The position numbers and the translations under genes are program-made. From Longimicrobiales bacterium (GTDB lineage: Bacteria > Gemmatimonadota > Gemmatimonadetes > Longimicrobiales > Gaopeijiaceae): a DNA stretch of 64,000 bases. Position 1 is the first letter of the stretch; every line of letters begins with the position of its first letter. Where the stretch lies: positions 1,120,001 through 1,184,000 of the forward strand of contig CBDFIQ010000002.1 in the NCBI GenBank assembly GCA_965248195.1, in the 5' to 3' direction. Shown piece by piece: positions 308 to 25,635 of the stretch. The notes under the pieces were generated by a model. The model was not told the origin of the DNA, did not search any database, and saw only the letters and a program-made list of their open reading frames with translations.

Positions 308-658
308 GTGACCCGGACGATCTCGGCGAGCCGCCCTTACCCGCGAGATCGCTCTCGCTCGCACACGCTTCGAGCTGCCCGACTCCGTGCCCGTCATCTC
401 CTGCTTCGAGGCGGGCCGAGACGGCTTCTGTATCCATCGCTTTCTTCAGACGCAGCCCCACTGGTTCAACCTCGTCGTCGACTCCGCCTCGATCGAGGTC
501 AACCGACGCCTCCGACGCCTCAAGACCGACCGCACCGATGCCCACAAGCTCCTCACGATGCTTATTCGCTACCACAACGGTGAGTCCCGTGTCTGGTCCG
601 TCGTCCACGTGCCCACGCCCACGCCCGAGGCCGAAGACGCCCGCCACCTTCACCGCGA
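308..658 (+). pseudogene. IS110-family transposase, 5' part (degenerate N-terminus, cut by IS256)
   Basis: Frame reads EIALARTRFELPDSVPVISCFEAGRDGFCIHRFL...VVDSASIEVNRRLRRLKTDRTDA...EDARHLHRE, the DEDD RuvC-like domain motifs of IS110; it ends at the IS256 left end. Confidence 0.85.
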
Positions 659-2034
659 GGTAGTGTCCCTAGATTTGTGTAAAAGCGGATAAGCTGGACA
701 GGAGGGAAAGAAAAACGGAAGCTCCTCTGTTGTTGTTCACTGTCACATGAACCCGGGAGTCCGGGTCTGCAGAGCAGGCTCGGAACCGGAGAGGAGCTTC
801 CGATGCAAGAGATTGTGGAGATCGGTCGGGCCACGCAAGACGAGCTACGCGATGATTTGCGCGAGCTGTTTCAAGGCGCGATCCGGCTGACGCTCGAGAT
901 GGTGCTGGAAGAGGAGCTGAAGGCCATGGTAGGTGCACGCCGCTTCGAGCGGGTGGGAAGCCGGAAGGACCATAGGAACGGCACATACCTGAGGCGGCTG
1001 CTGACGAGCCTGGGGCAGATCGAGGTCGCCATGCCCCGGAGCCGGGACAACGGTTCGCCGGCCGACGTGATCGGCCGCTACCAGCGCAGGAGCCCCGAGC
1101 TCGACGAGATGATGGTCGAGGCGTATGTGAGCGGCGTGTCACAGCGCAAGATGGGCGACGTCACCGAGGCGCTGATGGGCGAGCGTGTTGGGCGCTCGAC
1201 GGTGAGTCGTGTGGCAAAACGGCTCGACGAGGCCGTGGAAGGGCTGCGCCGTGCGCCGATCGAGGGGCCTCACCCCTATCTGTACCTGGACGCCACGTTC
1301 TTGGACGCCCGCTGGGCCCGCAAAGTCGAGAACGTGAGTGCGCTCGTGGCGTATGCAGTGGGCCCTGAGGGTCACCGACGGCTCCTGGCCGTCACGCTGG
1401 GCGCTGAGGAGTCGCAGCAGAGCTGGTCGGAGCTCCTCGAGCAACTCCAGGACCGCGGCCTCGGCGGTGTCGAGCTCGTGATCGCCGATGAGCACGCAGG
1501 CCTGGCAGCTGCGGTCCGCCGCTTCCTGCCCGAGGCACGCCGTCAGAGGTGTACGGTCCATCTGCAGCGTAATGTGGGGGCGAGGGTCCCCCACCGCCTA
1601 CGCAAGCGCGTGGCGCGTGAGGTCTCGGTGATCTTCCAGACATCCGGACTCGCCGAGGCGAAGAAGCTCCTGGGCGAGTTCGGCGCACGCTGGAAGAAGG
1701 AGCTGCCCGAGGCCGTGGAGGTCCTGGAGCGGGGCTTCGGGGCAGCGACGCAGTTCTACGCGTTCCCCGAGGCGCACTGGCCCCGGCTGCGTACCACCAA
1801 CAGCCTCGAGCGGCTGCACGGCGAGATCAAACGCAGGATCAAGGCCGCCGGCGCCTTCCCGGACCGGGCCAGCGCCCTCAGGCTCATCACGGCCGTCGCA
1901 CTCAGGACCACACACGTCTGGGGCGACCGGCGTTACCTCGACCTCTCACTCCTCCAGAAACAGGAGGTCGCCCAAGCAGCCTAGCCGAAGGCGAGGAGCT
2001 TCCTCCGCTTTTACACACAAATCGGGACTTGACC
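659..2034 (+). mobile_element. IS256-family element, copy 1 (1,376 bp)
   Basis: Imperfect terminal IRs GGTAGTGTCCCTAGATTTGTGTAAAAGCGGA / GGTCAAGTCCCGATTTGTGTGTAAAAGCGGA; same length and ends as copies at 10179 and 24260; no target duplication. Confidence 0.95.
803..1984 (+). CDS. IS256-family (Mutator-type DDE) transposase
   Basis: RNGTYLRRLLTSLGQIEVAMPR, YLYLDAT, IADEHAGL, QRCTVH and RTTNSLERLHGEIKRR motifs; SD GAGGAG. Confidence 0.97.
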   Translation: MQEIVEIGRATQDELRDDLRELFQGAIRLTLEMVLEEELKAMVGARRFERVGSRKDHRNGTYLRRLLTSLGQIEVAMPRSRDNGSPADVIGRYQRRSPELDEMMVEAYVSGVSQRKMGDVTEALMGERVGRSTVSRVAKRLDEAVEGLRRAPIEGPHPYLYLDATFLDARWARKVENVSALVAYAVGPEGHRRLLAVTLGAEESQQSWSELLEQLQDRGLGGVELVIADEHAGLAAAVRRFLPEARRQRCTVHLQRNVGARVPHRLRKRVAREVSVIFQTSGLAEAKKLLGEFGARWKKELPEAVEVLERGFGAATQFYAFPEAHWPRLRTTNSLERLHGEIKRRIKAAGAFPDRASALRLITAVALRTTHVWGDRRYLDLSLLQKQEVAQAA

Positions 2035-2657
2035 TCCTCGCTGCCCAGGGCCTCTCCCTCTCTTCCCTCAATCGTGGCTTCCTCGACCAACTCGACGACC
2101 TGCGCCTCTTCGACGACTCTCCGCTTCTTCCCCAACTCCGCCAGCGTCTCGAACGTGAGTGGCTCCACCGTTGCGATGTCTCCCACAGAATCCGCTTCAT
2201 CGAGAAGCTCCAGTGCCAACGCCTCGAGGCCTCTACGCATGATCCCGCACTCGAGCTCGTACGCCAGCTCATGAGCCTCAAGGGTATCGGACTCCAGTCC
2301 GCCTGGCTCTTCACCTTCGAGTTCTTCTCCTGGCGCAACATCCAGAACCGTCGTGAGATCGCCGGCCTCGCCGGCTTCACGCCCACCCCCTATCAGAGCG
2401 GAGATGACTCCTTCGACCAGGGCATCTCCAAGGCCGGTAGCTCCACCGTCCGCGCCATGGCCATCCAGATTGCTTGGGGGTGGCTCCTCTTTCAACCCGA
2501 CTCCGCACTCACCCTCTGGTACCAGCGTCGCTTCGCTTCGCGCGGGCTCCGCATGAGGAAAATCGGTATCGTCGCCCTCGCTCGCCGTCTGCTCATCGAA
2601 CTCTGGAGATTTTCCGAAACCGGCTCACTCCCCGAAGGCGCCATCACTTCTCCTTGA
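2035..2657 (+). pseudogene. IS110-family transposase, 3' part
   Basis: Reads LLAAQG...LMSLKGIGLQSAW...REIAGLAGFTPTPYQSG...QGISKAG...RKIGIVALARRLLIELWR (IS110 C-terminal domain). Confidence 0.9.
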
Positions 2658-2659
2658 GA

Positions 2660-2816
2660 AGCCATCGCTCCTTCGAGGTCCGTTCGACATCGCGCTGGGT
2701 GGGGCGGCCCGTGATTGCTGCGGGTCTCGCCTTTCAGGCCAACCGTCTCGACAGATGGGGTACGGCTCTGACGCAGTGATCGAGGAGTAGCCTTGGGACG
2801 ATCCACTACATCACCC
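2660..2816 (+). ncRNA. Candidate IS110 non-coding end RNA (bridge/seek-RNA-like)
   Basis: Non-coding stretch after the transposase stop with several hairpins (CCCGT..GCGGG, CCGTCT-CGAC-AGATGG, GTGAT..GTAG..CTAC-ATCAC); function inferred from family only. Confidence 0.35.
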
Positions 2817-2943
2817 CCCAGGCCCCCACGGGACTCCCCCCCCTTGGAACCGAGGGCAAAAGCGCCCCGAGGGCACGCGTCGACAGCGAGCCCAGAAGAC
2901 CCCGCCCTACCCCCACCTGCCCATTCCGCGGTGTGGGCTACCG

Positions 2944-5141
2944 CTAACCACTCTCTGGCAGCTGTACTTTATGTGCGACCGGCAAGAATCGGGTCATGTG
3001 CCTTGTATAATCTGCATAATACTGGTTCCAGTCAGCCTCTTCGTAGTCTTCGGGGTCAGCTTCGATGTTTCGCTCGAGGGTCCTGGCACACACTGCATCT
3101 GCAACGATCTCGGCCAGCAATACTCGAAAGTGTCTTGACTCTTGTCCAGGGAAGTCCGGCGGCGCTCCGAGATACCGCGCGAGGGACGGATGCCTGGCGG
3201 CAACCTCGAGTACGTTCTGTTTCCACTTCGACCTTTGATTCCCGTGGCTGACGTCCCCGACCTTGATCTTCAATCCCGCGCCAGGCGCCGGACCTGACCT
3301 GATCTCCGCTGTCGCGCCAAGGCTGTCCACCTGCACTTCGATCTCCCCCTGCGCTTCCTGTGAATCTGACTTAACCGTGAACTCGCCGATCGAGACACCA
3401 AGTTCGGGGTGAGGCTTGATCGTCTTTGCACCCACCACGCGGAAGTGTGGGCTGGACAGTGCTACGTCCATCTCCGTTGCGACGGGGACGCGATCCAGCG
3501 GTGCCAGCACTCTGATCTTCTTTCGGGCTCCGTTTGTGTAGATTTTGTACCGTTTTCTCGCGAAGCACAGCGTGGTGACATCCTTGTACTTGTCCGCCTC
3601 GGTGGCAAAAACCTCGATCGCACTTACGGCCTTGATGGATCCGACCGCCACCCGCAAGCCGGTCGCCGGAGTGGCCTTGACGGCTTTCACTTTCCACGAG
3701 GCGCGTAGCGTTGCGTCCCGAGTTGGGTGAGGCTCGAGAGCGACGAATCGACGACCAGTCTGAATCTCAGGTGTTACGCACGCGATCTCGATATTTGCCC
3801 CGACTTCGAACTCTGGGAAGACCTCCTGGTTGATCGTGAGCCCAAACTGCCGCGTATGGCCCACGACCATCTGCGCGAACGGGGGGCTCAACATGTACCC
3901 GTGATTCCGGAAGTGGCTGCCTAGCTGCTTGTGGTCAGGATCTCTCGAGTCCTCGTCCTCTTCACCGGAATCCTTCATGAATTTCGCGGCGGCCTTCTCG
4001 AGGGCGTCGAGTCGCTTTCGCGTGGCGCGACTCTCTATTTCCGCCTGTTGATGCTCGTCCCTCCGGCGCTCCGCGTCCACAAGAGGTCGCAGCCGCTTCA
4101 GGACTCCGCGTAGAGAGCCGACACGAACGGGTGGCTCCTCGTTAGCCCGGTCTGTCGAGAAGGATCGAGGATCGGTACCGGATTCGAGCTCTCCGGAGGA
4201 AGGTCCTTTTCGAACCGATCGTCGAGATCGTTCCAAAGATCGTCGATATGCGGACAGGTCAGCTTCCCATAGAACCAAGCGGCGTGGTTGTCCCGCTCTA
4301 GTTCAGCGTCAAAGTACGTGGCTTCGTGAATCGTATGCCGAGACTTGACCAGAATCCCGCCGCGCCGGAATCGATTCGGCTCACGCTCAAACGCGCTTCC
4401 GGCTCTTTTGATAATCAGCTTAGCGGTCACGCCAGGATACCCTGGGATTTCAATCGTCGCCTTGAGCCGATCTTTCCCGTCGGGCTGGGGCGCCTTGAGT
4501 ACCACGGTCTTCTTCTGGCTCGAATCTCGGAGGATGATCTTCCTCTTGGGATCACTGAGAATGTCGCGCAACGATACCAACCGCTGGATTTTGTCTTTGA
4601 GGTTGTCGAACCGCGGAATCGGGTTGTCCCCTACCCGCACTGTAACTAGCATGCCCGATTTTTTTAGGAGCCCGGTTCTTTTTCTGATCGCTGGCGACGC
4701 CTCCTCCGTCCCCAAGGCCCTGAATCGGAAGGCCGAGGAGATCTCAGAACAATGAAATTTGCCGTCAGACGCAGCGATTGATTCGAAGGTGACATTGCCG
4801 AGCGCGGCAATGTCCTTAGCGCCTCTGCTGTTGGTACCCCGCACCGCAAAGCCCTCCTCGAGACCGCTGAACCGTCCACCCGTCCATGTGAGCTTTTCGT
4901 CCATCGCGTCGAGCGTCATTCCGTCGGCGTGATCGCGGACCCGAAGTGCGCGCCCGTCGGTCCCTCCGCCTCTCTCGATCTCGATCTCGATCGTGCCTGA
5001 AATTCCCAACTGCTGATACCGGTCGTCGCAGTTCGTGATCAACTCCACCAACGCATCGAAAATGTCTCGAATCGCCAGCTTAGCTTGTTGCATGACCGAC
5101 CGGCGACCACCCGTTATGTCCTTTGCTTCCATCGTCTCCAT
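2944..5141 (-). pseudogene. MORC-like GHKL ATPase (~732 aa if repaired), frameshift at ~4104
   Basis: N-box ALVELITNCDD, G1 VRDHADGM, G2-like RGTNSRGAKD; ORFs 4098..5141 and 2944..4278 join as ...SALYAE-VLKRLRPLV... if one G is added (GAGTCC to GAGGTCC); C-terminal VLEVAARHP resembles the IxINxxHP motif. Confidence 0.75.
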
Positions 5142-5159
5142 CGTCTTCGTCCTCTCTTC

Positions 5160-5787
5160 TTAGCGGTGTACGTCGTACGCGTCGCGGCATTTCTGCACGA
5201 AATCGACCATATCCTGCTGACCGGCTGATATGGCTTTGACCTCCAATGCTTTCGAACCGCCCGTTCCAGACCCCAGGGGCCGCATCGACTCTGCACCGGG
5301 CGAGATCGGCCAGGTCGCCGATGGCGGGCGCGAACCCAACGGGGTCCTCGAGATAGTCTAGGAAGACATGATGCTTTCGGACCTTGGCGAGCTGCTTGAG
5401 GACTCGCTGGCGGTGAGCTTTTAGCTCCGACCCTCCCCCGAGCGAGTCAATAACGGAGCCCCTCGCCCTGACCCACTCCACCCCTTCCGGAGTGAGCATC
5501 CAGCCATCGAGGGTTGGGGTTCTCTTAGTCTTTGCAGAATGTCCATGCCTCTGCCCGGTTCGCCCTTCTACGAGTCTCCCATGCTGCTGCTTCCGGGCGT
5601 CCGTCAAGGCGACTCGGACGATGTCCTTGTCGGGGTACTCAGGGTATTTCGTCCAGGAAAAGGACCCTGGAAAAAGCTCATAGCATTTCAACGCAAGATC
5701 CTCGGTGTGGATTCGTTTGGAGTCTCCGCCCAACACCGACAGTGCGTAGACTACCAACTCCCGATTGGGGACGGAGCCAGTCTTCAC
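5160..5787 (-). pseudogene. Winged-helix-like protein (~208 aa if repaired), +1 frameshift at 5250-5252
   Basis: HTEDLALKCYELFPGSFSW..YPEYPDKDIVRVAL...GWMLTPEG (wHTH-like wing). Removing one A gives FEALEVKAISAGQQDMVDFVQKCRDAYDVHR-stop, ending just before the ATPase RBS. GTG start overlaps the upstream stop (GTGA). Confidence 0.65.
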
Positions 5788-6884
5788 TTGTCATTCCTCG
5801 TCTGAATGGATTTCCCCGACAGGTAATCAGTCCCATCCTCGGTCAGCACATACTCCACGTGAACACCCTCCCTCAAGCGCACGAGTAGTCCGAGATCGAC
5901 CATCCGAGCAACCGCGCCGGAGCGTTGCGTGGAGACAAACGCGGCTGACACGGGGGCGTCGGAAACGAGGCGCACGAAGTCCTCGTCCATTTCGTTCGGG
6001 GTGGTCACGCCCGAATCGACGGCGGTGAGCACCGACCTGAACGCGGAGTCTTCACGCGGAACCGAGTCCTGGATGTGAGAGAGCAGAATATGACGTTCCT
6101 CGTCAGTGAACTTTTGAGTCGGCCCTTCTTGAGTCCCATCCAACACCGGGTTCCCGGCCATCGCAAACCACCATCCAGGATCGGTCAACGCGACGCGATC
6201 GCGAGCCGATGACGTGTAGTTCAGGAGGCTCAAGTCTGCCAGGAAGCCCGTTAGATTATTCTCCTTGGTAGTTCCCGCGATGAACTGATTACCGAAACGG
6301 AGCCTACTCTTTTCTGCCTTCTTCCCGGCGCTAGGGAATGCGGTGGAGAGCGCGTTGTCCCTGTGCAATTCGAGACTCCTCTCAAACCTCCTCAACGATT
6401 TTCCCAACTGACTGGCGGCACTGACGATGGCTGTAGACGCCTCATCGACAGTCACACCCTCCGGTTTCTCGAGCAGCATGTTGGCGAGTCCGCGACAGCT
6501 GGCTTTCACTGGTAAGACTCTGTTGTACTGGCCGAAGAACCACCGCTCGAGGGGCACCGGGTCACCGGAAGACCACGGAGTGGGAGGCAAGGGAGCCGCG
6601 TAAAGTTGACGCTCAACCGTGGGGGGTTTGGCGAAGAGTTGTGAAACCTCTATGGATGCCGATTCGTAAGGGCCGTCGCCTTCCGTAACCATCATCGCAG
6701 ACGGACCATCCTCGAGAGTGGAGTCGAGCAGGAGTGCACCCTGCGACCTCACGTTTCGCTCCAACACAGCAAGATTCGCTATGGCAACTGTAATAACCTC
6801 GCCATAATCACTGTATTGGCCGCTCTCAATCAATGCGTCGAGCGTTTTCTTGGTCTGCTGGGACAGATCAACACATAATATCAT
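5784..6884 (-). CDS. Hypothetical DNA-binding protein: N-terminal RHH-like segment plus two winged-helix-like repeats
   Basis: MILCVDLSQQTKKTLDALIESGQYSDYGEVITVAI resembles RHH antitoxin/CopG-type N-termini; two DL(S/G)LL...LT(D/E)xG wing motifs. Confidence 0.7.
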   Translation of the reverse strand: MILCVDLSQQTKKTLDALIESGQYSDYGEVITVAIANLAVLERNVRSQGALLLDSTLEDGPSAMMVTEGDGPYESASIEVSQLFAKPPTVERQLYAAPLPPTPWSSGDPVPLERWFFGQYNRVLPVKASCRGLANMLLEKPEGVTVDEASTAIVSAASQLGKSLRRFERSLELHRDNALSTAFPSAGKKAEKSRLRFGNQFIAGTTKENNLTGFLADLSLLNYTSSARDRVALTDPGWWFAMAGNPVLDGTQEGPTQKFTDEERHILLSHIQDSVPREDSAFRSVLTAVDSGVTTPNEMDEDFVRLVSDAPVSAAFVSTQRSGAVARMVDLGLLVRLREGVHVEYVLTEDGTDYLSGKSIQTRNDK

Positions 6885-6895
6885 AATAATACCTA

Positions 6896-6942
6896 TTTAT
6901 AATTATAAAATATACACTATAATATAGATCCCCGTTTGTCAA
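6896..6942 (-). promoter_or_regulatory. sigma70-type promoter with palindromic operator for the three-gene operon
   Basis: TTGACA at 6942-6937; -10 candidates TAGTGT (17-bp spacer) or TATAGT (15-bp); perfect palindrome TTTATAATTATAAA at 6896-6909. Confidence 0.65.
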
Positions 6943-6999
6943 ACCGACATAGACTCAATCCATGCCGTCAGCGCCGGGACAGAAAACGAGGGGGGCGTC

Positions 7000-7737
7000 T
7001 TGAGGGAGCCGGGAAACGTGATCCTGGTCTGCATAGAGGACTCGCCAGAGGCAACGGTCCGCCCTCGCTTGGAAGCGATGGGGGCTGATCTCTCCCTGAT
7101 CCATATCCTCGACGGGTTCCGCCCACTCGACGGCGGGGAGCCGGAGCTATTGGATCTATCGAAGGTCGATCACCGCCAGGAATTTCGGCGGCTCGTAGAG
7201 GACGTCGAAGCCGTGCTGGTCGTGGTAGATCCCGTGATGGCTCACCTTGGGGGGTCGAACACGTGGAAGGACAGCGAAGTGCGATCCGTCCTCGCGCCGC
7301 TTGCTCGCATGGCCGACGAGACCGGGGTAGCCGTTCTGCTCGTCCGCCACCTCCGGAAGGACGATTCCGCCAGTGCGATCTACCGTGCCGGCGGCTCGAT
7401 CGCGTGGCACGCGCTCCAGAGACAGGGCCGATCCGTCGAGATCGTCGCCGTCGTCCGGACCCGGAAGGAAATGGACCGAGCCGGGACGATCCTCGGGAAC
7501 TGGGCCGAGGCGCCCGCCGCCTCCGGCGCCGTCGATCCGGCCCGCTGCGAGATCGACCGGATCGAGCAGGCGATCCGCGGCATGGACGACGCGGTGATCG
7601 AGAAGCATGGCGGCCTCCAAGGCTGCCTCGAGCGGATCGTCGAGCTGAAGGACCTGCTCCGGTCCGTGCGGCCCGGAACGGCGATCGACGGGTTCACGAC
7701 ATGGCGCTCGAGCCGGCTTCCGGGGGGCGGATCTTGA
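7000..7737 (+). pseudogene. AAA_25/RecA-type primase-helicase fragment fused to an unrelated C-terminus
   Basis: IEDSPEATVRPRLEAMGAD, Walker B LVVVDPV, VLLVRHLRK, YRAGGSIAW; Walker A missing; sequence character changes after ~7410. Confidence 0.65.
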
Positions 7738-8623
7738 CCGCCGATCGGCGGGGGTCGGTGGCGTGCCGCGCGTGCACATCGACATCGGCGTGCATGTGCA
7801 CGAAAACGCCGCTTCCATGTGCGCGCCTGCGCTTGCGCATGTCGCTGGCCGCGTTGCGGTTGCACCACGGCCGCAGGACCGGCGATGCCGTTCCGGAGCT
7901 TGCGGCCGTGACCGGAGCGACCCCCCTCTTTCGATGCCTGGTACGGCATCGGGGAGGGTTGGATGTGCACGCCCATCCACCCTCCGTCGGGAGGTCGTGC
8001 TCCGGTCCAGCAATCCCGTGCGGGAAGGCCATCGGTCACTTGGGACGGGCGCGTCCCGGACTTGGCGGCTTGGGCTGTGGCCCGAGCCATCGGGGTACCC
8101 CGGCTTTGCTCGGTGATGCCCGGTTGCCAGACGGCCGGCCGGTCGGCGAACGGGTGACCCGCCGCCTCGAAGCGGCGCTCAAACCGCCTTCCCGCGTAAG
8201 GATTGATGGATCGGGAGCGACCCCAAGGGACGGGGGCAGGGGTGTGAAAACACACCTGCATCCGAACCCGTACCAGGCCCTCGGACTGGGGGGTCGCTCC
8301 CGTCCCGGTCAGTGCTGCCCGTGCGGTGCTGACCGACCCGGCCGCGAAGGCGCAAGACGTGGCCGTGTCGTGGCTTACTCCGTAGCACGCGTGCGCATCG
8401 CCGGAGGGCCAAAGTGCGCATCGGCCCCCCGCGTCGTTTGCGCACTCCAGTGCGGCCGTAAGTCGCGCGCCGGTCATCGGTAGCGCGCCCCCGCGAGACG
8501 CACCGTCCGCCAGGTGCTGGCCCGCCGGATGGACCCGGGTCCGGGCTGGCGGCGCACCTGCTTCTCGAGCACGACGCTACGCTTCATGGCGGCCTGCAGG
8601 CCTCCCCCCTATACTATTGGGGG

Positions 8624-9859
8624 ATGAATAGTGTGAAGCACTCGGCCAACCCGCCGCGAAAAACCAAGCTCAAGGGCCGCCATCCCGACAAGGCGTTGTC
8701 GGCCGCCTTCGTGCGCACGGCCCCGCCCGGCAGACATTGCGACGGCAATGGCTTGTACCTCTACGTGCAGCCTACGGGAACGCGGAGCTGGATTCAGCGG
8801 CTCGCGATCCGGGGCCGCAATCGCGAGCTCGGACTGGGCAGCGTGGCGCTGATTTCGCTGGCCGAGGCCCGCGAGCAGGCGCTGGCCAACCGCAAGCTCG
8901 CGCGCTCGGGCGGCGACCCGCTCGCCGAGAAACGCCGCACGCAGGGCGTGCCGAGCTTCGCGGAATCCGCCGTGAGGGTGATGGAACAGAAGCGGGCCGG
9001 TTGGCGCAGTCCGGGTCATAGCCGCGAGTGGATTTCGAGCCTCAGGCGCTACGCCTTCCCGCGCATCGGCGAGATGGCGGTCTCGGAGGTGACGAGCGCC
9101 GACGTGCTGGAGATCCTCACACCCATCTGGCACGTGAAGGCGCCCACGGCCCGGCACGTGCACCAGCGTATCCGCACGGTGCTGGAATGGGCCGTGGCGA
9201 TGGAGTTCAGGACCGACAACCCATGCGACCGAATCGGGCCGATCCTCGGAGCGCAGAACGACGTGGTGACACACATGCGGGCCTTGCCGCATCGCGACGT
9301 GGCGTCGGCGATCGAGACGGTGCGGGGGTCGGGGGCGCAGCCGGTCGTCAAGCTCGCGTTTGAGTTCGTGGTGCTGACGGCGGCGAGGTGGGGCGAGGTC
9401 CGGGGGGCCGAGTGGGCGCAGATCGATCGAAGGGAGGGAGTATGGACGATTCCCGCCACGCGGATGAAGGCGCAGCGCGAGCACCGGGTGCCGCTGTGCC
9501 GCCGCGCCACAGAGATTCTCAGCGCGGCGCGGAAGCTCGGGGACGGCAGTCCGCTGGTGTTCACCCGTGGGGGTGGCAAGCCGCTCTACGAAAAGCGGCT
9601 GCGCCGGCTTCTGCGGAACTGCAAGATCGCGGCCGTGCCGCACGGCTTCCGCTCGAGCTTTCGGGACTGGGCGGCAGAAGAGACGGATCATCCGCGCGAA
9701 GTCATCGAAGCGGCGCTGGCGCATGTGGTCCAGAACAAAGTCGAGGCGGCTTATCGGCGCACCGACCTGTTCGACCGCCGACGTCGACTTATGGACGACT
9801 GGTCGGCGTACTTGGCCGGCGAGCGTGGAGATGCAGCCGACGTCAGGCCGGTCCGTTGA
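8624..9859 (+). CDS. P4-type tyrosine recombinase (integrase) with N-terminal arm-binding domain
   Basis: DGNGLYLYVQPTGTRSW, LTAARWGEV, RMKAQREHRVPL, HGFRSSFRDW, ALAH, AAYRRTDL. Confidence 0.95.
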   Translation: MNSVKHSANPPRKTKLKGRHPDKALSAAFVRTAPPGRHCDGNGLYLYVQPTGTRSWIQRLAIRGRNRELGLGSVALISLAEAREQALANRKLARSGGDPLAEKRRTQGVPSFAESAVRVMEQKRAGWRSPGHSREWISSLRRYAFPRIGEMAVSEVTSADVLEILTPIWHVKAPTARHVHQRIRTVLEWAVAMEFRTDNPCDRIGPILGAQNDVVTHMRALPHRDVASAIETVRGSGAQPVVKLAFEFVVLTAARWGEVRGAEWAQIDRREGVWTIPATRMKAQREHRVPLCRRATEILSAARKLGDGSPLVFTRGGGKPLYEKRLRRLLRNCKIAAVPHGFRSSFRDWAAEETDHPREVIEAALAHVVQNKVEAAYRRTDLFDRRRRLMDDWSAYLAGERGDAADVRPVR

Positions 9860-10178: not shown

Positions 10179-11554
10179 GGTCAAGTCCCGATTTGTGTGT
10201 AAAAGCGGAGGAAGCTCCTCGCCTTCGGCTAGGCTGCTTGGGCGACCTCCTGTTTCTGGAGGAGTGAGAGGTCGAGGTAACGCCGGTCGCCCCAGACGTG
10301 TGTGGTCCTGAGTGCGACGGCCGTGATGAGCCTGAGGGCGCTGGCCCGGTCCGGGAAGGCGCCGGCGGCCTTGATCCTGCGTTTGATCTCGCCGTGCAGC
10401 CGCTCGAGGCTGTTGGTGGTACGCAGCCGGGGCCAGTGCGCCTCGGGGAACGCGTAGAACTGCGTCGCTGCCCCGAAGCCCCGCTCCAGGACCTCCACGG
10501 CCTCGGGCAGCTCCTTCTTCCAGCGTGCGCCGAACTCGCCCAGGAGCTTCTTCGCCTCGGCGAGTCCGGATGTCTGGAAGATCACCGAGACCTCACGCGC
10601 CACGCGCTTGCGTAGGCGGTGGGGGACCCTCGCCCCCACATTACGCTGCAGATGGACCGTACACCTCTGACGGCGTGCCTCGGGCAGGAAGCGGCGGACC
10701 GCAGCTGCCAGGCCTGCGTGCTCATCGGCGATCACGAGCTCGACACCGCCGAGGCCGCGGTCCTGGAGTTGCTCGAGGAGCTCCGACCAGCTCTGCTGCG
10801 ACTCCTCAGCGCCCAGCGTGACGGCCAGGAGCCGTCGGTGACCCTCAGGGCCCACTGCATACGCCACGAGCGCACTCACGTTCTCGACTTTGCGGGCCCA
10901 GCGGGCGTCCAAGAACGTGGCGTCCAGGTACAGATAGGGGTGAGGCCCCTCGATCGGCGCACGGCGCAGCCCTTCCACGGCCTCGTCGAGCCGTTTTGCC
11001 ACACGACTCACCGTCGAGCGCCCAACACGCTCGCCCATCAGCGCCTCGGTGACGTCGCCCATCTTGCGCTGTGACACGCCGCTCACATACGCCTCGACCA
11101 TCATCTCGTCGAGCTCGGGGCTCCTGCGCTGGTAGCGGCCGATCACGTCGGCCGGCGAACCGTTGTCCCGGCTCCGGGGCATGGCGACCTCGATCTGCCC
11201 CAGGCTCGTCAGCAGCCGCCTCAGGTATGTGCCGTTCCTATGGTCCTTCCGGCTTCCCACCCGCTCGAAGCGGCGTGCACCTACCATGGCCTTCAGCTCC
11301 TCTTCCAGCACCATCTCGAGCGTCAGCCGGATCGCGCCTTGAAACAGCTCGCGCAAATCATCGCGTAGCTCGTCTTGCGTGGCCCGACCGATCTCCACAA
11401 TCTCTTGCATCGGAAGCTCCTCTCCGGTTCCGAGCCTGCTCTGCAGACCCGGACTCCCGGGTTCATGTGACAGTGAACAACAACAGAGGAGCTTCCGTTT
11501 TTCTTTCCCTCCTGTCCAGCTTATCCGCTTTTACACAAATCTAGGGACACTACC
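10179..11554 (-). mobile_element. IS256-family element, copy 2 (1,376 bp)
   Basis: Reverse complement of copy 1, bounded by a 9-bp TSD. Confidence 0.97.
10229..11410 (-). CDS. IS256-family transposase
   Basis: Protein identical to 803..1984. Confidence 0.97.
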   Translation of the reverse strand: MQEIVEIGRATQDELRDDLRELFQGAIRLTLEMVLEEELKAMVGARRFERVGSRKDHRNGTYLRRLLTSLGQIEVAMPRSRDNGSPADVIGRYQRRSPELDEMMVEAYVSGVSQRKMGDVTEALMGERVGRSTVSRVAKRLDEAVEGLRRAPIEGPHPYLYLDATFLDARWARKVENVSALVAYAVGPEGHRRLLAVTLGAEESQQSWSELLEQLQDRGLGGVELVIADEHAGLAAAVRRFLPEARRQRCTVHLQRNVGARVPHRLRKRVAREVSVIFQTSGLAEAKKLLGEFGARWKKELPEAVEVLERGFGAATQFYAFPEAHWPRLRTTNSLERLHGEIKRRIKAAGAFPDRASALRLITAVALRTTHVWGDRRYLDLSLLQKQEVAQAA

Positions 11555-14204: not shown

Positions 14205-14709
14205 GGTAGTGTCGCGATATTTGTGTAAAAGGGGGTGAGGGGTCCGGGGAGGGTGGACAGCCCGGGAAAGAGAGAGAGGAAGCTCCTTGTGAATGTTCAT
14301 CATCACACGAACCCGGGGAGTCCGGGCCTGCGTCAGCAGGTCCGGAACCGGAAAGGAGCTTCCTCAATGGAAAAGATGGTTGAAGTTGAGCGGGCCACGC
14401 AAGAAGAGTTACGGCAGGATTTGAAGTCGTTGTTTGAGGGCGCGATTCGTTTGACGCTCGACATGGTGCTGGAGGAGGAGTTGAAGGCGATGGTCGGAGC
14501 GCGTCGTTTCGAGCGGGTCGGCAGCCGGAAGGACCACAGGAACGGCACGTACCTCAGGCGCCTGCTCACGAGCTTGGGTCAGATCGACGTGATGGTGCCG
14601 CGCAGCCGGGAAGGCGGCTCGCCCGCCGACGTGATGGGCCGCTACCGGCGCAGGAGTGAAGAAGTGGACGAGATGATGGTGGAGGCCTACGTGAGCGGTG
14701 TGTCGCAGC
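14205..14709 (+). mobile_element. Divergent IS256 relative, left end and 5' transposase fragment (ATG 14367)
   Basis: GGTAGTGTCGCGATATTTGTGTAAAAG end; MEKMVEVERATQEELRQDL...EAYVSGVSQ homologous to the intact copies, then an abrupt break. Confidence 0.9.
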
Positions 14710-15770
14710 AAGAAATGCCCCTTCGGGCAGAAATCGCCGGGCAACAGATCGCGCCCGTTGATGTTCACGCCCCGGAACCCGCCTTTCAGCGTGGTCGCCT
14801 GACTGATCTGTCGGAGCCCCGAGAGCTGATCGCCGAGATCAATGATCATCCCCCGGGTCGTGTAGTAGAGATCAGGCATCTGCCCTCCGGCAGCCGCGAG
14901 TCGGTGCTCCATCACCGCGATCTTCTTCTCGGTGATCTGCCCGGATCCGGAGATGGCGATGCCAGCCCAGCGTCGGTTGCCCGCTGCGGTCTGGTCGATG
15001 TTCTCGAACGTGTCACCAGTCGCTGCAACCGCGAGAATGCCGGTCGCCTCGTTCTGGTAGTTGTTCGCCTGATCCGTGCCGGTCGCCGCGGCGTCGTTAC
15101 AGAGCACCAAGAAGTCGCCGATCTCGTCGTTGGCGAACGAGCCGTCGACGGTCATCTGCTCGTTATCGACGTCGACGGTGGAGATCGTTTGACGGCCGCG
15201 CTCCGCACCGCCTGATGGGTTGATCAGCGCGACCTCCATGCCCTCGATGAGCAGCATGGTCCCGGGCCCTGCGCCCGTGACGCCATAGGGACTGTGCACG
15301 TCGTAGGTCGGCGCCGAAGCCACCGTCTCGAGCAAGCACAAGATCCCGTCCCCGTCGCCGTTGTACTGGCGCTCGAGGTCGATTTTCACGCGCGTCATGC
15401 CGTCCTCGAGCTCGTCCTTCAGCTTGTCTACGAACGCGTTGCGCGTATCGGAGGTGAGAGGAATCGTCTGCCCGCCGATCGCCACGACCGTGTAGGTGTG
15501 GGCCAGGTCCGCCTTACCGGCGCGCCTGATCGGACGGGAGGGAGTCGGCAGCAACTTGCCGTCGGGCACGTTGGCCGTCTTGCCGCCGGTCTCGAGCTTC
15601 ACGTTGAAGTGGAGACCGTCCGGCCCGCCCTTGAACTTCGTCGTTCGATTGAGCTGGGCCGTGAGCGGCGTAGAGTCTGGCACAGCGTCGAGCGCCATCA
15701 GATACACCTGCTTGAACACTGAGCTGACCTCGCTCACCGAGCTGGTGGCGATATCCGCAAAATCAGTCAT
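14710..15770 (-). pseudogene. Phage major capsid protein, C-terminally truncated
   Basis: FKQVY, LPTPSR, AFVDKLKDELEDGMTRVKIDLERQYNGDGDGILC, TTLKGGFRGV..DFCPKG pattern typical of HK97-fold MCPs; directly downstream of a scaffold-like gene. Confidence 0.75.
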
Positions 15771-15809
15771 AACCCCTGTTCCCTGTGAGGGCGCAGGAGC
15801 AAATCAGCT

Positions 15810-16943
15810 TTAGGTCTGGCCCGTCTCCTTGAAGTCCTCGAAGACTCGATCGATCGCGCTCATGCGCTTCTCGAAATTCGTGTTGCCTTCGAGCTCTGCC
15901 TCGTCCACCGGTGCCTGACCGGACGGAGGCGTACCCGACCCTTGCATCGTTTGCCCTTTGCGCTGTTCGAGTTTCTTGTCGATGCGAGCGTTGTGCTGGG
16001 CGGCATCGGCCTTACTCGGGTCGGGGTCCGGACTCTCACCGTTCGGGCTCTCGGGTAGAGGAACGCGACCGGCAAAGTCGGCGTTCATCGTCTTGAGCAC
16101 GCGGGTGAGCGCATCTGAATGCTCCTCCGTTAGCCATCGCGCCGCTTCCGCGGCCGCGATCCCTTCTGCCTCCTCCTGACTCTGTCCTTTGGCGACGAGC
16201 TCCCTCGTGAGGATCTCGCGGTAGCTTTCGGACGTCTGGAAGAGAGCAGCCTGAATCCTCGGGATGTCGGTCTCGCGGAGCATCGGATAGTCCGCTTTGC
16301 CCTTCTCACTCCCGAGGAGATCCTTCGTGTCCTGCGCGTAGCTGGCGTACACGTCCTCCCAGGCCTTCTTCTCGTCGGCCTCGGCACGGGCGGCATCCGC
16401 CTCATCACGTTCCTTGAGCTCGTCCTTCGCTCGGGCGCCCTCACGGGCTTCCTTGCTCTCGAGCGGGCCGAGCGCTTCACGCATCTTCTCGGCCGCGTCT
16501 TCGTCGGTCGGAGCCGAAACGAGCAGCTCCTCCCACTCGATGGCCTTCTCTTTGGCCTCGCCCTCGAGCGCTGCGACACGAGACAGTGCCGTGGCTCGCT
16601 CGTTGCCGAGCTCAGTGAGACGCCGATCAGCGTGGACACCCTTCTGTGCGAGCCCCACGAGTCCAGACATCGACTCGACCTTCACTTCTTGGCCGTCGGC
16701 CTCCGAGACCCGCATTGCGTCCATGACCGCCAACGTCTGGCGTCGAGTGGCGATGATGCCCTCCATATTCAGGCTCGCCGTGATCCGATCTGGGAGAAGA
16801 CTGCTGCGGAGGCGCTCGCCCACGCTTTGTGTGAACGGCCGATGCTGGAGCAGACCCTCGTTGGCGGCGGTCACCTGGGTGAGCAGTTCGGCTGTAGTCC
16901 CGCTTACCTTAATCTCACGTGGATCCTGTAGTTCGACTGTCAT
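15810..16943 (-). CDS. In-frame chimera: Fic-family N-terminus (16943-~16703) plus phage scaffolding-protein C-terminus
   Basis: HRPFTQSVGERLRSSLLPDRITASLNMEG (Fic N-terminus with SxxxEG helix) followed by ADGQEVKV..LVGLAQKGVHADRRLTEL and a charged coiled coil; ATG 16943 has SD GAGGA. Confidence 0.6.
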   Translation of the reverse strand: MTVELQDPREIKVSGTTAELLTQVTAANEGLLQHRPFTQSVGERLRSSLLPDRITASLNMEGIIATRRQTLAVMDAMRVSEADGQEVKVESMSGLVGLAQKGVHADRRLTELGNERATALSRVAALEGEAKEKAIEWEELLVSAPTDEDAAEKMREALGPLESKEAREGARAKDELKERDEADAARAEADEKKAWEDVYASYAQDTKDLLGSEKGKADYPMLRETDIPRIQAALFQTSESYREILTRELVAKGQSQEEAEGIAAAEAARWLTEEHSDALTRVLKTMNADFAGRVPLPESPNGESPDPDPSKADAAQHNARIDKKLEQRKGQTMQGSGTPPSGQAPVDEAELEGNTNFEKRMSAIDRVFEDFKETGQT

Positions 16944-17168
16944 TTCCTCACGCTTCCCAGAGCCATTTGCAACACCCCTGCCCAGGAACCTCCTGGGGTT
17001 TCCCGAAGGATTTGCGAAACCGTTGACGCGTAATGTGCCGACCAAGTGTGGAGTTGGCGAGTCGGTCGCAAACCTCCACAGCAACACCGCGTCGGTCAGC
17101 CTCGGCCTCGCAGACCTCGGCCTCAAGTACGAAGGGGAGAGGCCGAAGCCCCTCCCCCGTCTTAAAAG

Positions 17169-24259: not shown

Positions 24260-25635
24260 GGTAGTGTCCCTAGATTTGTGTAAAAGCGGATAAGCTGGAC
24301 AGGAGGGAAAGAAAAACGGAAGCTCCTCTGTTGTTGTTCACTGTCACATGAACCCGGGAGTCCGGGTCTGCAGAGCAGGCTCGGAACCGGAGAGGAGCTT
24401 CCGATGCAAGAGATTGTGGAGATCGGTCGGGCCACGCAAGACGAGCTACGCGATGATTTGCGCGAGCTGTTTCAAGGCGCGATCCGGCTGACGCTCGAGA
24501 TGGTGCTGGAAGAGGAGCTGAAGGCCATGGTAGGTGCACGCCGCTTCGAGCGGGTGGGAAGCCGGAAGGACCATAGGAACGGCACATACCTGAGGCGGCT
24601 GCTGACGAGCCTGGGGCAGATCGAGGTCGCCATGCCCCGGAGCCGGGACAACGGTTCGCCGGCCGACGTGATCGGCCGCTACCAGCGCAGGAGCCCCGAG
24701 CTCGACGAGATGATGGTCGAGGCGTATGTGAGCGGCGTGTCACAGCGCAAGATGGGCGACGTCACCGAGGCGCTGATGGGCGAGCGTGTTGGGCGCTCGA
24801 CGGTGAGTCGTGTGGCAAAACGGCTCGACGAGGCCGTGGAAGGGCTGCGCCGTGCGCCGATCGAGGGGCCTCACCCCTATCTGTACCTGGACGCCACGTT
24901 CTTGGACGCCCGCTGGGCCCGCAAAGTCGAGAACGTGAGTGCGCTCGTGGCGTATGCAGTGGGCCCTGAGGGTCACCGACGGCTCCTGGCCGTCACGCTG
25001 GGCGCTGAGGAGTCGCAGCAGAGCTGGTCGGAGCTCCTCGAGCAACTCCAGGACCGCGGCCTCGGCGGTGTCGAGCTCGTGATCGCCGATGAGCACGCAG
25101 GCCTGGCAGCTGCGGTCCGCCGCTTCCTGCCCGAGGCACGCCGTCAGAGGTGTACGGTCCATCTGCAGCGTAATGTGGGGGCGAGGGTCCCCCACCGCCT
25201 ACGCAAGCGCGTGGCGCGTGAGGTCTCGGTGATCTTCCAGACATCCGGACTCGCCGAGGCGAAGAAGCTCCTGGGCGAGTTCGGCGCACGCTGGAAGAAG
25301 GAGCTGCCCGAGGCCGTGGAGGTCCTGGAGCGGGGCTTCGGGGCAGCGACGCAGTTCTACGCGTTCCCCGAGGCGCACTGGCCCCGGCTGCGTACCACCA
25401 ACAGCCTCGAGCGGCTGCACGGCGAGATCAAACGCAGGATCAAGGCCGCCGGCGCCTTCCCGGACCGGGCCAGCGCCCTCAGGCTCATCACGGCCGTCGC
25501 ACTCAGGACCACACACGTCTGGGGCGACCGGCGTTACCTCGACCTCTCACTCCTCCAGAAACAGGAGGTCGCCCAAGCAGCCTAGCCGAAGGCGAGGAGC
25601 TTCCTCCGCTTTTACACACAAATCGGGACTTGACC
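24260..25635 (+). mobile_element. IS256-family element, copy 3 (1,376 bp)
   Basis: Same ends and length as copies 1 and 2; no TSD. Confidence 0.95.
24404..25585 (+). CDS. IS256-family transposase
   Basis: Protein identical to the other copies. Confidence 0.97.
   Translation: MQEIVEIGRATQDELRDDLRELFQGAIRLTLEMVLEEELKAMVGARRFERVGSRKDHRNGTYLRRLLTSLGQIEVAMPRSRDNGSPADVIGRYQRRSPELDEMMVEAYVSGVSQRKMGDVTEALMGERVGRSTVSRVAKRLDEAVEGLRRAPIEGPHPYLYLDATFLDARWARKVENVSALVAYAVGPEGHRRLLAVTLGAEESQQSWSELLEQLQDRGLGGVELVIADEHAGLAAAVRRFLPEARRQRCTVHLQRNVGARVPHRLRKRVAREVSVIFQTSGLAEAKKLLGEFGARWKKELPEAVEVLERGFGAATQFYAFPEAHWPRLRTTNSLERLHGEIKRRIKAAGAFPDRASALRLITAVALRTTHVWGDRRYLDLSLLQKQEVAQAA

Follow-up and report, generated by a model that had tools for sequence, protein, structure and literature searches.

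A mobile, unnamed GHKL ATPase module and its probably inactive copy in a Longimicrobiales genome

We examined a cluster of three genes in a 64,000-nucleotide stretch of a Longimicrobiales genome (assembly GCA_965248195.1, here G000, 4.86 Mb in 2 contigs; contig CBDFIQ010000002.1, positions 1,120,001 to 1,184,000 of the forward strand), referred to throughout as the window. The cluster is a copy of a mobile, unnamed GHKL-ATPase module that works like the restriction-linked operons of the MORC/paraMORC ATPases but lacks the MORC signature. All three genes lie on the minus strand. The first open reading frame, ORF1 (5784..6884), is intact and encodes 366 amino acids (aa), with an N-terminus resembling a ribbon-helix-helix (RHH) domain (residues ~1-48), a flexible linker and a predicted recognition module (~111-360), without a catalytic domain. 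ORF2 (5160..5787) has a frameshift near 5250-5253 and would, if intact, encode 208 aa comprising an N-terminal domain, a linker and a C-terminal helical domain. ORF3 (2944..5141), frameshifted near 4103, would encode 732 aa, consisting of a GHKL ATPase followed by a long C-terminal half. The tight, co-directional packing given in a preliminary description of this DNA holds: ORF1 and ORF2 overlap by GTGA at 5784-5787, and ORF2 and ORF3 are separated by 18 base pairs (bp; 5142-5159), a gap that is identical in L003, a sister assembly whose locus is 99% identical to that of the window and which served as the intact reference for ORF2 (208 aa) and ORF3 (732 aa). The genes are also, as described, lower in guanine plus cytosine (GC) than core genes, at 0.569, 0.595 and 0.581 for ORF1, ORF2 and ORF3 compared with 0.654, and with 0.63 for the genome. 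None of the three had a significant match in Pfam, PADLOC or NCBIfam; the window's reading frames gave no match to PADLOC 2.0 models at E<=1 and the intact ORF2 and ORF3 none at E<=0.01. This agrees with the earlier statement that they belong to no named system.

Across 45 loci with a full-length ORF3-type gene, ORF1 and ORF2 were both present at 9, ORF2 only at 17 and neither at 19, of which 18 fall in one clade; all 9 three-gene loci came from the search anchored on ORF1 and are thus over-represented. There is no fixed three-gene system, and the usual core is ORF2 with ORF3. The three-gene system first proposed therefore stands in so far as the genes co-occur elsewhere, and falls in that the set is not obligatory, with ORF3 found beside ORF2 alone or beside neither, and ORF1 serving other GHKL clades as well. 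ORF2 lies directly ahead of ORF3 in 26 of the 45 loci, across the ORF3 tree, and because it accompanies ORF3 on all deep branches the pair looks ancestral. ORF3-type genes were found in 20/401, 11/301, 4/301 and 5/301 genomes of four phylum samples, and in one genus, 10 of 24 genomes carry members of a GC-adapted clade of solo ORF3 genes (those with neither partner). No ORF2 or ORF3 was found on viral contigs and no ORF3 on plasmids; ORF1 was present on 1 viral contig and in 4 plasmid records, all of them haloarchaeal.

The neighbours of these genes vary. Of the 26 ORF2+ORF3 loci, 12 have a nearby methyltransferase, drawn from several unrelated types (a hand count, some of the other loci having short flanks), and solo ORF3 genes often neighbour type I HsdR, a KAP NTPase, an AbiEii-type ATPase, Schlafen, PD-(D/E)xK or RES genes. 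No nuclease or SF2 helicase recurs among the recurrent neighbour clusters that were identified, where such genes appear only sporadically; the nuclease-type cases are a type IV-like gene in L003, PDDEXK_4 in L187 and L188, and a type I HsdR in L179. The earlier claim that no nuclease is present was confirmed to the extent that no conserved one was found in the genes or in their recurring neighbours. A protein of 344-509 aa with a GreA/GreB C-terminal domain recurs convergent to solo ORF3 (L177:10938-12146, L180:6222-7256 and L185:4251-5780), and some ORF2+GHKL operons contain large proteins with an RNA polymerase alpha-CTD and/or sigma-70 region 4 (L042:3290-5989, L136:7044-9224 and L194:11492-13390). 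Two of the latter weakly match the PADLOC model MzaA. Mza is presumably also a case of a GHKL ATPase in a defence-type setting, but these neighbours in two loci are the only point of contact, and ORF1 to ORF3 themselves match no PADLOC model.

ORF3 has the GHKL boxes ascribed to it (an N-box ExxxN, a DxGxG-like G1 box, and G2 and T boxes): E33, N37, D70, G74 and G107 are invariant in all 47 aligned homologues, and G163 is kept in 46 of them. The T-box threonine (residue 164, at ~4650) is present in 44 of the 47; in the window's lineage (7 of 120 close homologues) it is methionine, a substitution that may alter ATP binding. Profile comparisons matched ORF3 to the N-domains of Hsp90/Grp94 (best E 4.8e-5), and in Pfam 11 of the 47 members matched HATPase_c and 10 matched HATPase_c_3. 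The label MORC-like was not borne out by the MORC signature of the S5 domain, GhXhhpXXRhl, which was found, with strict and loose patterns, in 0/47 ORF3-type proteins and in 0/31 of a larger GHKL class. The tail described as IxINxxHP-like reads VAARHP, with H651 in 44 of 47 members. The C-terminal half had no match in PDB or Pfam, and no library match backed the beta-rich domains proposed for ORF3. Nuclease families gave no match in 47 full-length or 15 C-terminal sequences, and PD-(D/E)xK nucleases in particular gave none in Pfam, PADLOC or PDB, at a sequence level that a divergent form could escape. Pfam matched neither an S5 domain (at the sequence level) nor a TIR domain in the ORF3 members, and STAS or anti-sigma kinase families matched none of the three ORFs.

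ORF2 has 224 homologues. It had no match in Pfam, PDB or the named Atlas clusters, and no homology between ORF1 and ORF2 was detected. By eye, the N-terminal domain of ORF2 looks winged-helix-like. Five homologues from Chloroflexota (L239-L242 and L244), of 385-443 aa and set in a housekeeping neighbourhood, have a histone-H1-like Lys/Ala/Pro linker of 185-243 aa with a net charge of +44 to +53, a composition that would suit DNA binding or compaction.

The AlphaFold2 model of ORF1 (pLDDT 87.5) begins with a short extended stretch and two helices, the RHH-like part, continues through a disordered linker and ends in a compact region. The RHH label itself comes from some source annotations and a weak NCBIfam match (E 0.021). 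Structural alignment with VIA-align superposed residues ~111-360 on the recognition domain of FokI (2fok) with Z 10.5 over 188 aligned residues (root-mean-square deviation 3.7), on N.BspD6I with Z 9.9 over 187 and on BpuJI with Z 8.4 over 177; unrelated transcription factors reached Z 8-9.6, but with only ~65-85 residues aligned. A FokI-domain cluster was also the Atlas lead for ORF1 (0.76), and a PDB sequence search gave nothing useful. The protein ends ~10 residues past its last winged helix, where aligned homologues also stop, which leaves no room for a catalytic domain, longer fused homologues not having been sought. ORF1 is thus predicted, on the strength of the model, to join an RHH-like N-terminus to a multi-winged-helix recognition module of the FokI/BspD6I/BpuJI type, without the nuclease domain. 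Its family is large, with 1291 clusters at 50% identity (E<=0.001), or 647 at E<=1e-30.

Another way to view ORF1 is through the genes that follow it. We collected 148 ORF1 loci, of which 114 have at least 1 kb downstream and 55 have wide flanks. A GHKL gene lies within 3 kb after ORF1 in 102 of the 114; 82 of these belong to a class of about 840 aa, 12 are ORF3-type, and 5 and 3 belong to two others. Inspection of the remaining 12 loci made a GHKL gene evident in 3, leaving 9 without any. ORF3 and the 840-aa class could not be aligned. On the ORF1 tree the ORF3-type partners are dispersed, with 9 loci needing 8 changes, a pattern that a regulator free to switch partners would produce. We conclude that ORF1 is an independent unit, plugged in ahead of GHKL genes from several unrelated clades. 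Of the 55 well-flanked ORF1 loci, 48 have a DNA methyltransferase in their flanks; these enzymes belong to unrelated types, although most are of one family with FxGxG and SPPY motifs. The preliminary description had allowed that homologous loci might always carry a restriction-modification core to which the three genes are accessories; the methyltransferase half of such a core is indeed present at most ORF1 loci, but no restriction nuclease accompanies it. On the four haloarchaeal plasmids, ORF1 precedes a GHKL-type gene in one record and a comparable but apparently split arrangement in another; a C5 methylase is nearby in both. The remaining two (L208 and L211) have no GHKL gene in this place, and instead encode two uncharacterised proteins of ~295 aa and a DEAD/DEAH helicase downstream of ORF1.

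The promoter/operator region of the window's copy (6885..6942, minus strand) contains TTGACA at 6942-6937, AT-rich repeats and an AT-rich near-palindrome at 6894-6905. The proposal that the operon has its own promoter and operator is supported by these elements, but the spacing from TTGACA to the following TATAGT is only 14 bp (in L003, 15 bp to a TATAAT), and a promoter scan did not join the two. Across the family, TTGACA lies upstream of 75 of 128 ORF1 homologues (8.7 in shuffled sequences), and 124 upstream segments of 130 bp contain 211 copies of ACAGT, both strands counted, where ~19 would be expected (an 11-fold enrichment; ACSGT occurs 19 times in the same segments). At least two copies of ACAGT are present at 64 loci, and their most frequent positions flank or overlap the -35 box. 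The repeat is seen with all four GHKL classes and so tracks ORF1 rather than one methylase type. Some ORF1 clades lack it, including that of the window, whose promoter is without ACAGT like those of most of its nearest relatives; promoters in the window's clade are rich in ATATA/TATAA. Because promoters of the family carry TTGACA and the enriched repeat, ORF1 is likely an autoregulator of its own operon. The best covarying columns of ORF1, 315 and 319, lie in the last winged helix, and read SS in 48 motif-positive and 2 motif-free loci but AT in 4 and 22. We considered the RHH strand as the reader of the motif and rejected it, residue 6 having 8 values among motif-positive loci. ACWGT as a methyltransferase target was likewise disfavoured, as it occurs in all GHKL/methylase classes, is near-absent from one methylase-bearing clade and is not avoided.

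The copy in the window is broken in two places. Compared with L003, there is a one-base insertion near 5250-5253 in ORF2 and a one-base deletion near 4103 in ORF3. The preliminary description treated these indels as errors in need of repair, but contigs assembled from runs X1 and X3 (depth 7 and 5) show 0 differences from the window across 2706-7200, which makes assembly artefacts the less likely reading; X1 and X3 are one sample, possibly the source of the window itself, so that a shared systematic error remains conceivable. Neither indel is present in X5 or X12, which are from other studies, or in L003, and ORF2 and ORF3 are intact in all three. Since X1 and X3 match the window exactly while X5, X12 and L003 do not share its indels, both frameshifts are likely to be real and strain-specific. 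With ORF2 and ORF3 both frameshifted, the window's copy is likely a decaying pseudo-operon and the module inactive in this strain. G000 contains 105 near-full-length IS256 copies in 4.86 Mb, 3 of them in the window (803-1984, 10229-11410 and 24404-25585), a large recent expansion that fits with ongoing decay. In the RNA runs, at most 0.12 of the words matched.

As originally described, the genes sit in an integrase-bearing island beside an IS110 element. Pfam places an AAA_25 fragment (7000-7737) and a tyrosine integrase (8624-9859) upstream on the plus strand (7000..9859), and an IS110 remnant (387..2761, plus strand; Transposase_20, Transposase_mut), split by an IS256 whose transposase occupies 803-1984, downstream of the three genes and outside the module. 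The remnant starts ~180 bp past the ORF3 stop, at the very point where similarity to L003 ends (alignment end 2762); on the integrase side the shared stretch extends to 7405. It had been suggested that an effector gene was lost at this IS110. One case speaks for this: 455 bp past ORF3, L003 has a 422-aa gene (L003:14397-15665), absent from G000, whose product resembles type IV restriction proteins at its N-terminus (PADLOC mREase_IV, 7.7e-17) and has a NOV_C domain at its C-terminus. However, it was not found beside any other ORF3 locus compared, and in run X5 the sequence past ORF3 differs again from both the window and L003; the gene therefore looks like a variable neighbour. No methyltransferase adjoins the copy in the window or in L003, and G000 contains no close match to the methyltransferase seen most often in the family. 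Elsewhere in the window, two ORFs of 453 and 438 aa at 14409-17126 (minus strand), without significant Pfam match and broken by IS256 remnants, resemble, on visual inspection, a pair of phage major capsid and scaffold genes. Just before the window, past a tRNA-Val, are ORFs that by eye are integrase-like, AAA-like and small-terminase-like.

Our literature search found no description of the module, although the supplementary lists of PMC2292703 or of the Tiamat preprint could still contain these proteins. The nearest described relatives are the prokaryotic MORC and paraMORC1-5 ATPases of restriction-modification operons, for which DNA looping was proposed (Iyer, Abhiman, Aravind 2008, PMC2292703). 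In the parts of that paper available to us, they resemble ORF3 in having methylase neighbours, a sporadic, lateral pattern of distribution and an N-terminal GHKL domain whose motifs are intact. The ORF3 family differs in lacking the MORC signature and conserved SF2 helicase or nuclease neighbours, and in its partners, which are ORF2 and an RHH/FokI-type protein; the comparison covers the main description rather than the paper's member lists. ORF1, for its part, superposes on the binding domains of FokI, N.BspD6I and BpuJI, but it is without their catalytic domain, it carries an RHH-like part at its N-terminus, and a repeat is conserved in its own promoter. DndG, SspB and BrxA are related multi-winged-helix proteins (PMC10853773, PMC12839542); from the sections consulted, ORF1 differs from them in pairing with a GHKL ATPase and not with AAA+, P-loop or HerA ATPases. 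Tiamat (bioRxiv 10.64898/2026.09.30.754977) and VcSduA/Shedu (PMC12137116), as presented in the accessible text, share the GHKL ATPase and the defence-type setting but have a C-terminal nuclease, of which none was recognised in the sequence of ORF3. In CapK/CapS, a GHKL-fold protein and a DNA-binding repressor act upstream of immune genes, CapK resembling an anti-sigma kinase and CapS being a STAS protein, according to the part of PMC13373217 we could draw on; here no STAS match was found, and ORF3, an ATPase of 732 aa, extends into a long C-terminal half. Unlike type II restriction-modification systems, the family pairs its methyltransferase with no recurring endonuclease, and the window's copy has no adjoining methyltransferase.

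In the best-supported reading, the GHKL ATPase is the core of the module, ORF2 its usual DNA-binding partner, and ORF1 and the methylase are optional. ORF1 would dimerise via its RHH-like part and use its winged helices to bind short repeats at the -35 box and around it, which would hold expression down in the manner of the controller proteins of restriction systems. ORF2 would bind DNA and recruit or tune ORF3, dimers of which may use ATP to clamp onto DNA, which they would then loop or compact, so that transcription or replication is blocked. A linked methyltransferase, where present, would mark self DNA. We favour a clamp over cutting because no nuclease recurs, and the clamp step follows the established behaviour of GHKL proteins and the looping model in the accessible portion of PMC2292703. 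For ATP-driven clamping or compaction of foreign DNA by a nuclease-free module, we would put the probability at roughly 0.4.

A number of observations pull against this reading. Of the 19 ORF3 loci without ORF2, 15 are in genomes where ORF2 was not found elsewhere either, so ORF2 is dispensable; supply from elsewhere was considered and rejected for both partners, ORF2 being found in 4 of the 19 genomes, each time adjacent, and ORF1 as only a fragment in 1. Of the 8 loci of the window's close clade (solo clade excluded), just 1 adjoins a methyltransferase, and ~8 ORF2+ORF3 loci sit among housekeeping genes without one. The defence-type neighbours of ORF3 were noted without a background control, and the profiles behind the ORF1-GHKL count were derived from those very loci, near-duplicates included. 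As for ORF1, the FokI Z of 10.5 is only ~1 higher than those of single winged-helix matches, and Foldseek puts FokI first but non-significantly (E 0.092). With relatedness taken into account, motif and residues covary only weakly (of 10 sister contrasts, 3 agree, 0 oppose and 7 say nothing either way), and ACAGT is not avoided in locus bodies (observed/expected 1.08). Finally, the C-terminal half of ORF3 keeps conserved D/E/H residues, and could hide a nuclease.

This last point leads to the alternative of a conventional restriction-like system, with a nuclease hidden in that C-terminal half or borrowed from a neighbour or elsewhere. The methyltransferase linkage, the conserved D630, E646, H651, H671, E678, D682 and H724, and the occasional nuclease-type neighbours (L003, L187, L188, L179) speak for it, as do the nucleases of other GHKL defence proteins reported in the available parts of PMC12137116 and the Tiamat preprint. 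We nevertheless think it rather unlikely, as nuclease families matched none of the 47 full-length or 15 C-terminal sequences, most of the seven residues are lost in distant members and no one nuclease neighbour recurs. Less probable again is that ORF2 and ORF3 organise or silence the host's own DNA as a nucleoid-associated clamp, with defence secondary. The histone-H1-like ORF2 linkers and common non-defence neighbourhood in several Chloroflexota, and the GC-adapted solo clade, would fit such a role, but the patchy distribution across the four phylum samples, the variable and often mobile neighbourhoods, the low GC here and the frameshift loss in the window's strain fit it poorly.

ORF1 might instead be chiefly a specificity subunit of the effector complex, in effect a free-standing Type IIS-like recognition domain whose job is to load the ATPase, with the promoter sites used as a sideline. 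Its predicted FokI-type fold, its near-exclusive linkage to GHKL genes and the commoner methyltransferase where ORF1 is present (48/55) would be explained, yet its GHKL partner clades are too distant to align (A2 vs A4 probability 0.6%), 36 of 45 ORF3 loci are without ORF1, ACAGT is not avoided and 2 of the 4 haloarchaeal plasmid homologues are followed by non-GHKL genes; we regard this role as improbable. An addiction module, in which ORF2 neutralises a toxic ORF3, would match the order of a small gene and then a large one, and the breakage of both together in the window, but is very hard to reconcile with 19 intact-looking ORF3 genes without an adjacent ORF2, 15 of them in genomes with none elsewhere.

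The interest of the nuclease-free clamp lies in the family, since the window's copy is broken and likely dead, and intact alleles are available in sister strains. The ORF1 family, large and without annotation, apparently uses a FokI-type recognition module as a regulator, and ACAGT is its predicted binding repeat. To our knowledge, the bacterial GHKL defence proteins described so far work with a nuclease; DNA silencing by eukaryotic MORCs works through clamping and compaction. We put forward, tentatively and with the odds against it, that the module is a bacterial counterpart of MORC silencing: a nuclease-free, methylation-gated GHKL clamp, guided by a small protein that binds DNA and is histone-H1-like in some lineages, would neutralise foreign DNA by trapping and compacting it, under a regulator built from a restriction-enzyme recognition domain. 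If true, a widespread nuclease-free, methylase-linked bacterial family would provide a small, testable model for the MORC-type transition, and possibly a form of restriction that does not cut.

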